Part shown: piece after piece, positions 47,029 to 47,808 of the stretch
How positions within the stretch are numbered: the stretch's first letter is position 1
Layout: every line of letters begins with the position of its first letter
Origin: Bacilli bacterium
Lineage (GTDB): Bacteria > Bacillota_I > Bacilli_A > RF39 > UBA660
DNA length: 64,000 nucleotides
Assembly: GCA_028691955.1 (NCBI GenBank)
Contig: JAQUYH010000007.1
Location: forward strand, 745 to 64,744
Reading direction: 5' to 3'
The notes under the pieces: generated by a model
What the model was told of the DNA's origin: nothing
What the model saw: only the letters and a program-made list of their open reading frames with translations
The model's database searches: none
Program-made: the position numbers and the translations under genes

Positions 47029-47808
47029 ATGAAAGAAAAATATGAAAAGTTAGTAAGTTTTAACTACAAGATGGGCTTTTTACATTTAATCCAAGGCTTT
47101 ATAATGTTATTTTTGTCAGTATCAGTTATCCAAAAAATCGCTGAATTTAAGCCAATGATAGTCCAAAACTATTTATCATTTAATACACTAACAAGTTCTT
47201 TGGAACCAGCTACTAGAAACTTATTTAATTTACAATTTGGTGTATTAGTTTCATCATTCTTATTTATTTCAGCCATCGCGCACTTTATAATTGTCCTTAA
47301 TCAAGAAAAATATGTGGCGGGATTAAAAGAAGGAATCAACAGATTCAGATGGTATGAATATGCTATATCTTCATCTATTATGATTACTCTTATTGCAACC
47401 CTTTTTGGAGTATATGATATAGCCTCATTAATACTAATCTTTATTCTAAATGCTACAATGAATTTATTTGGATTATTAATGGAACAAGTAAATATTGGAA
47501 ATGACAAAAAAAATATCAAATGGGCACCATTTATATTTGGGGCAATAGCCGGAATAGCTCCTTGGATAGTCATTTTGCTATATATGTTTGGAACTGGCAA
47601 CTTCGACTTAGTTCCATGGTTTGTTTGGGCTATTATTATAACTTACTTTGTAGCCTTTAATACATTTCCAATCAATATGATTTTACAATATAAAAAAGTT
47701 GGTAAATGGAAAGACTATTTATATGGAGAAAGAGTATATATTATACTAAGCCTAGTAGCTAAATCAGCTTTAGCTTGGTTAGTATTATTTGGAGCTATGC
47801 AGCCATAA
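47029..47808 (+). CDS. Heliorhodopsin-like 7-TM protein (candidate retinal-binding)
   Basis: Seven hydrophobic helices. RWYEY with E110 in TM3. S241-x3-K245 in TM7. H19 and H85. 259 aa. This matches my recollection of heliorhodopsin 48C12 (E107, K241, S237, H23, H80). Confidence 0.5.
   Translation: MKEKYEKLVSFNYKMGFLHLIQGFIMLFLSVSVIQKIAEFKPMIVQNYLSFNTLTSSLEPATRNLFNLQFGVLVSSFLFISAIAHFIIVLNQEKYVAGLKEGINRFRWYEYAISSSIMITLIATLFGVYDIASLILIFILNATMNLFGLLMEQVNIGNDKKNIKWAPFIFGAIAGIAPWIVILLYMFGTGNFDLVPWFVWAIIITYFVAFNTFPINMILQYKKVGKWKDYLYGERVYIILSLVAKSALAWLVLFGAMQP

Follow-up and report, generated by a model that had tools for sequence, protein, structure and literature searches.

An intact heliorhodopsin gene from a low-GC Bacilli bacterium compared with characterised heliorhodopsins

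The nearest characterised homologue of the protein described here is TfHeR, the heliorhodopsin (HeR) of Trichococcus flocculiformis, which has a λmax of 542 nm and does not pump (Shim et al., PMC9769723). The TfHeR operon also encodes a class-2 CPD photolyase, to which the rhodopsin binds (Kd about 22 µM); repair activity goes up about three-fold on binding, for which E97, R162 and K227 are needed (PMC9769723). The best match among solved structures is TaHeR from Thermoplasmatales archaeon SG8-52-1 (PDB 6is6, 7u55 and 7clj), and structures are also available for 48C12, the founding member of the family (PDB 6su3 and 6uh3). The residues of the 48C12 Schiff-base cavity have been listed by Kovalev et al. 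(PMC7049168), in whose classification the combination of Asn for I142 and Met for Q213 belongs to subfamily 3, which is all bacterial. An unreviewed preprint (10.1101/2025.11.27.691015) describes a fenestration as the proposed site of a carotenoid antenna, with aromatic residues at 162 and 206, Gly169 and small residues at 166 and 210 (48C12 numbering) as its criteria. HeRs as a family have been associated with light-damage and redox functions (PMC8612252, PMC11109279).

The initial annotation, read from the letters without database searches, proposed that one open reading frame (ORF) in the window, that is, in the whole 64-kb stretch of DNA that was analysed, encodes a candidate HeR of 259 residues with seven hydrophobic stretches. 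Both the length and the seven stretches are borne out by the translation and its hydropathy, with TM3 and TM4 as well as TM5 and TM6 merging when a 19-residue window is used. The alignment to Pfam PF18761 that the annotation had suggested gives a very strong full-length match (313 bits, E=1.5e-93, cut-off 26.7), which spans residues 9–257 of the protein and positions 2–242 of the 242 in the profile and is the sole Pfam match, and the NCBIfam equivalog NF038020 (‘heliorhodopsin HeR’) matches with 295.5 bits (E=2.9e-88, cut-off 100). The top sequence matches in the PDB are all heliorhodopsins (E=1.7e-61 to 1e-46), namely TaHeR (6is6, E=1.7e-61), Chromera velia HeR Cv06 (9vfc, E=7e-53) and 48C12 (6su3 and 6uh3, E about 4e-47 to 1e-46). 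The type-1 rhodopsin profile PF01036 has no match to the ORF at E<=0.01. The ORF is a genuine and intact member of the heliorhodopsin family, and such a protein can be recognised by a tool-free reading of its landmark residues. The features of the locus and of the remainder of the window are collected in Table 1.

Table 1. Positions of the HeR gene, its expression signals, its neighbours and other features of the window
Feature	Position	Strand	Remarks
Small membrane-anchored GGDEF (diguanylate cyclase) protein	3562–4230	+	
MerR regulator	17383–18189		29 kb from HeR
Ribosomal protein L10 leader	23935–24052	+	59.8 bits; upstream of rplJ/rplL; ordinary
T-box leader	43800–43983	+	99 bits; in front of aspS
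orf187, divergent CYTH / class IV adenylate cyclase-like	45864–46427	+	TIGR00318 (cyaB), E=6e-8, 32.7 bits, cut-off 57.95
orf159	46456–46935	+	immediate upstream neighbour of HeR
Extended -10 promoter-like element TGcTATAAT	46940–46948	+	putative, read from the sequence; within the 93 nt that separate orf159 from HeR
Shine-Dalgarno AGGAGG	47018–47023	+	strong; 5 nt 5' of the HeR ATG; read from the sequence
Heliorhodopsin (HeR) CDS	47029–47808	+	259 aa; ATG start
Terminator-like hairpin with T-run	47791–47829 (hairpin 47791–47819)	+	11 pairs; overlaps the HeR stop codon
Polysaccharide deacetylase	47861–49087	+	408 aa; Polysacc_deac_1 PF01522, E=5e-12; downstream neighbour of HeR

The residues around the presumptive chromophore are those of 48C12. 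K245 and S241, the latter four residues earlier in the position where type-1 rhodopsins have Asp, align with 48C12 K241 and S237, and E110 lies within R107-W108-Y109-E110-Y111 (RWYEY), a single-Glu counterion motif of the form R-W-x-E-Y in which R107, W108, E110 and Y111 correspond to R104, W105, E107 and Y108 of 48C12. H19, H85, S241, R107, E152 and E234 lie around the Schiff-base cavity, and H19, H85, N12, N104, Y95, E234 and E152 are identical to H23, H80, N16, N101, Y92, E230 and E149, respectively. The pairings that the annotation had given (E110/E107, K245/K241, S241/S237, H19/H23 and H85/H80) prove exact in the HMMER alignment to 6su3. At the 39 positions that were mapped, most of them named as structurally important in PMC7049168, 34 residues are identical, and the Schiff-base set (the Lys, the Glu and three Ser), both His and the equivalents of R104, E149 and E230 are kept, even though the overall identity to 48C12 is only ~45%. 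The replacements include I142 by N145, Q213 by M217 and Q247 by L251, the first two being the subfamily 3 combination. When the protein is aligned with 78 relatives from other species, H85, R107, W108, E110, Y111, E152, E234 and K245 are invariant (79/79), H19 is His in 78 of the 79 sequences with one alignment gap, and S241 is kept in 78. The invariance of K245 agrees with the conservation of the Schiff-base lysine in all solved HeRs and settles in the affirmative the question of lysine conservation raised by the annotation.

The AlphaFold2 model, for which 38 sequences were used (mean pLDDT 88.1, pTM 0.82), has seven long helices and a β-hairpin in the A–B loop, with strands at residues 43–52 and 57–67. 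A Foldseek search of the PDB places TaHeR 6is6 first (TM 0.89, rmsd 2.2 Å), followed by 48C12 (TM 0.84–0.86), with type-1 rhodopsins well behind (TM 0.5–0.6, 10–15% identity). When hydropathy and homology are used to set the helix boundaries, 13 Lys and Arg residues fall on the predicted cytoplasmic side (the N-terminus and the B–C, D–E and F–G loops) and three outside, all in the long A–B loop, the remaining outside segments having none. This bias places the N-terminus in the cytoplasm and supports the inverted HeR topology with an outside C-terminus. Seven helices and a cytoplasmic N-terminus are what the annotation had expected, here as a computational prediction. TaHeR is 46% identical in the structural alignment and shares the Asn at the I142 position and the Met at the Q213 position. 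It differs in being archaeal and in having Thr where the protein from the window keeps the equivalent of N138 (N141), and the A–B loop is longer in the latter. Type-1 rhodopsins (bacteriorhodopsin, proteorhodopsin and xenorhodopsin) share the seven-helix retinal-protein fold and the lysine of helix G, but the HeR has the opposite predicted topology, a Ser at the Asp212 equivalent and none of the proton donor and acceptor carboxylates.

The fenestration positions are occupied by F168, A172, G175, F210, N211 and P214, which match the Cv06 pattern F/C/G/F/N/P, and the F/G/F/N motif of 48C12 is the same. At the sequence level the protein carries the motif proposed for a carotenoid antenna, and carotenoid binding is a candidate property.

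The likeness to TfHeR is closer than that to any solved structure (75% identity by MAFFT, 73% by tblastn). It extends over the full length with a difference of four residues, a three-residue deletion falls in the B–C cytoplasmic loop of the protein from the window, the core residues are the same, and the host of TfHeR is likewise a monoderm of the class Bacilli. On the photolyase-binding surface, E97 and K227 of TfHeR are conserved as E93 and K223, whereas R162 is replaced by N158. Since other Trichococcus species with an adjacent photolyase have His at the R162 position, the Asn is weak and non-diagnostic evidence. The genomic context also differs: TfHeR (locus L009) has a CPD-II photolyase next to it, and the HeR of the window does not. 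A tblastn search of the 64-kb window with a photolyase of the clade found nothing, and no DNA_photolyase domain was found by Pfam in the window ORFs that were scanned (44 of 75 candidates; the others, such as rpoB/C and the ribosomal protein genes, were assigned by eye).

The HeR family is large and common in Gram-positive bacteria. At least 6,990 proteins were retrieved at E<=1e-10, and a scan with one genome per species gave at least 540 relatives. The bearers include Trichococcus, Halolactibacillus, Enterococcus aquimarinus, Acholeplasmataceae, Izemoplasmatales and Erysipelothrix, and also Fusibacter, Proteiniclasticum, Christensenellaceae and Thermotogae. The named bearers of close HeRs belong mostly to free-living groups, namely Trichococcus, Halolactibacillus, Fusibacter, Izemoplasmatales and Acholeplasmataceae. 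The protein itself is already known: an identical sequence is deposited as NCBI MDD3187578.1, ‘MAG: heliorhodopsin HeR [Bacilli bacterium]’, from a contig of 65,679 bp, and the same sequence also occurs in the Logan assembly of SRR22315505. With the exact protein already named and the family large and common, the identification is correct but ordinary, and with a homologue about 73–75% identical whose function is published it matters little beyond correct annotation. Some relatives sit in metagenomic bins labelled as diderm taxa (L016, L027, L042 and L070; Muribaculaceae, Desulfovibrionaceae and Verrucomicrobiota), the GC content being 42% in L027 and 58% in L042, which is 2.6 kb long. The genes of L070 resemble, by eye, those of the block at 34735–35694 of the window. 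The occurrence of HeR in diderms was rejected for L016 and L070 (Muribaculaceae and Verrucomicrobiota labels), as their GC content of 23–27% and the window-like genes of L070 make both look mis-binned.

An all-against-all clustering of the neighbours over 80 HeR loci gives photolyase (17 loci), ABC transporter (14), DegV/Dak2 (9), SDR (9) and tocopherol-cyclase-like (7) genes as the neighbours of HeR in the clade. The photolyase genes lie within 5 kb of HeR (L002, L007, L009, L010, L013, L019, L029, L032, L037, L052, L053, L055, L065, L072, L074, L077 and L078), and a photolyase also stands beside HeR in three further metagenomic contigs (L085, L086 and L091). In further relatives the genes near HeR are OGG, Ogt-like, LigA/UvrD, thioredoxin, glutathione peroxidase (GSHPx) or DUF2177 genes, in keeping with the light-damage and redox associations described for the family (PMC8612252, PMC11109279). 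Searches of the window found none of the clade neighbour types; the one match, to a tRNA methyltransferase, is unrelated. When the 15 window proteins around HeR were searched with tblastn against the 80 HeR loci of other species, HeR alone was found, and none of the 14 neighbouring genes occurs within 10 kb of HeR in those loci.

The closest relative (L082–L084), with a HeR 84% identical, has the same downstream order of HeR, deacetylase, rbfA, HAD, deoC and tyrS, and hydrogenase genes upstream in place of orf187 and orf159. As the adjacency of the deacetylase is limited to this relative, it seems to reflect a local gene order that was inherited and not a functional module, and there is probably no functional link between HeR and the deacetylase. 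In the syntenic block (L082 6001–11373 against window 47029–52223), HeR is the most conserved protein, ahead of RbfA (82% amino acid identity), TyrS (78%), DeoC (78%), the deacetylase (53%) and HAD (53%), and its dN/dS is about 0.05, an approximate value because dS is near saturation. HeR is clearly under strong purifying selection.

The expression signals suggest a unit of one gene. The promoter-like element upstream of HeR, which the consensus promoter scan did not flag because of its poor -35 region, may provide the gene with a promoter of its own. The terminator scan found three candidates against 0.6 expected in shuffled sequences, and the only terminator-like hairpins of the scanned region are one downstream of aspS and one at the HeR stop. 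HeR is thus probably transcribed alone, as a monocistronic message, judging from these sequence signals. The Rfam search found nothing in the HeR leader. The downstream neighbour had been described as a polysaccharide deacetylase lipoprotein; the deacetylase assignment stands, but the lipoprotein part is doubtful, since Val precedes the Cys in its N-terminus MKKLSFLVALSFLIVCC and there is no canonical lipobox. This hydrophobic N-terminus could instead be a signal anchor, and the enzyme is predicted to be secreted or membrane-anchored with an extracytoplasmic domain. Two genes upstream of HeR, orf187 matches TIGR00318 over nearly its full length at a score below the curated cut-off; it has no Pfam match, the PDB sequence search was empty or insignificant, and a single-sequence AlphaFold model has a pLDDT of 37. 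An ExExK motif is typical of CYTH proteins, and orf187 has ELEIT in its place. The protein encoded by orf159 has no significant Pfam, NCBIfam or PDB match. A paralogous relationship between the two was considered, as the EYEYS N-terminus of orf159 is loosely like that of orf187, but is not supported by BLASTP (E=0.19).

The protein is very probably a bona fide functional HeR that carries retinal on K245, does not pump and modulates a bound partner enzyme. By analogy with its homologues, the most likely description is that of a light sensor that does not pump and controls a partner in the cytoplasm. All-trans retinal would be bound as a protonated Schiff base to K245 in helix G, with E110 of helix C as the counterion and with stabilisation by S241, S81 and S114. 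Green light (about 540–550 nm, by homology) would isomerise the retinal, and the proton, rather than crossing the membrane, would pass into a water-filled cavity lined by H19, H85, N104, Y111 and E234. A long-lived intermediate would then alter the cytoplasmic surface and thereby modulate a soluble or membrane partner bound to the cytoplasmic loops, with no ion being pumped. We infer the photochemistry, the absence of transport and the regulation by protein contact from characterised homologues. TfHeR stimulates a photolyase, and the genes most often found beside HeR in the clade serve DNA repair and redox functions, so that a response to light damage is the best guess for the process that is regulated. 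No genes for retinal or carotenoid biosynthesis (blh, crtB/I/Y) and none for glutamine synthetase or other known HeR partners were found among the ORFs of the 64-kb window that were scanned with Pfam or assigned by eye, and the retinal probably has an external source or is synthesised by genes that lie outside the window.

The alternatives differ mainly in what the protein would act upon. A TfHeR-type helper role, in which HeR would have as its partner a class-2 CPD photolyase from another part of the genome and would make green light usable for photorepair, is a possible but rather doubtful reading: the high identity to TfHeR, the conservation of two of the three binding residues and the rank of photolyase as the commonest neighbour in the clade speak for it, whereas the window contains no photolyase, the closest relative also has none beside its HeR, the equivalent of R162 is Asn and about 79% of the related loci have no photolyase within 5 kb. 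It is improbable, though somewhat less so than the readings that follow, that in this apparently anaerobic lineage, which is related to Bacilli and Mycoplasmatota and has a small genome of low GC content (27%), HeR works through a class of partner that has not been described. Such a partner would be neither photolyase nor glutamine synthetase nor an ABC transporter and might be found in the deacetylase and housekeeping block or in the upstream CYTH-like proteins; if this were true and the organism were associated with a host or gut like its nearest named RpoB relative, light would be a cue for ‘outside the host’. That HeR acts directly on its neighbours, with light regulating the downstream deacetylase and hence the cell wall, or the upstream CYTH/CyaB-like proteins and hence nucleotide signalling, is very unlikely. 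The retained order from HeR to tyrS in the closest relative, the weak match of orf187 to class IV adenylate cyclases and the placement of the hairpins, from which orf187, orf159 and HeR could share one transcript, are in its favour. The same relative, however, has hydrogenase genes where orf187 and orf159 stand, none of the neighbours accompanies HeR in the other 80 loci, a terminator-like hairpin stands between HeR and the deacetylase, and the latter evolves fast (53% identity). Its domain is moreover predicted to be extracytoplasmic, and HeR partners bind the cytoplasmic loops (PMC9769723).

Other alternatives concern the activity of the protein itself. Some HeRs transport protons (cited in PMC12873467 and PMC11109279), which speaks for an ion-transporting HeR like the viral proton-transporting V2HeR3; the protein from the window groups instead with non-transporting bacterial and archaeal HeRs, TfHeR does not pump, the 39 mapped positions include no charged residue on the extracellular side, and the fenestration motif is present where the transporting subfamily 2 is without it (preprint 10.1101/2025.11.27.691015), all of which makes transport extremely unlikely. 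A retinal-free or light-independent role, with the protein serving another membrane function or persisting as a relic in an anaerobe that may live in the dark and lack retinal, could draw on the lack of a retinal pathway in the window, on the [FeFe]-hydrogenase genes of a relative and on the gut metagenome-assembled genome (MAG) among the RpoB relatives. It is nevertheless highly improbable, since decay would be expected of a relic and K245 and E110 would be dispensable for a role without retinal, whereas purifying selection is very strong and the Schiff-base lysine and the counterion are invariant in all 79 sequences.

The GC content is about 27%. The organism is walled, as the window encodes EzrA, YceG/MltG and UppP in addition to the polysaccharide deacetylase. 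The best named relative by RpoB (83% identity) is ‘Candidatus Fimihabitans intestinipullorum’, a MAG from the chicken gut placed by NCBI in Mycoplasmatota incertae sedis, and the RpoB of GCA_942493215.1 (OW818670.1, a single contig of 1,494,278 bp) is likewise 83% identical. The latter genome carries a HeR 73% identical to that of the window, adjoining an Ogt/MGMT-like DNA-repair gene (L087). Upstream of the HeR region, the mechanically assigned start of the aspS ORF (GTG at 43968) overlaps the T-box, so the true start of AspRS is probably the ATG at ~44016 (MKKIENGK...). Straight after a cluster of 12 tRNA genes (8034–9166), three genes on the + strand (9370–11332) have Bflower-like, HEPN RiboL-PSP and DUF2806 domains; they may form a small defence or mobile island at a tRNA site. 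The GGDEF protein near the start of the window shows that this reduced-looking genome has c-di-GMP signalling.
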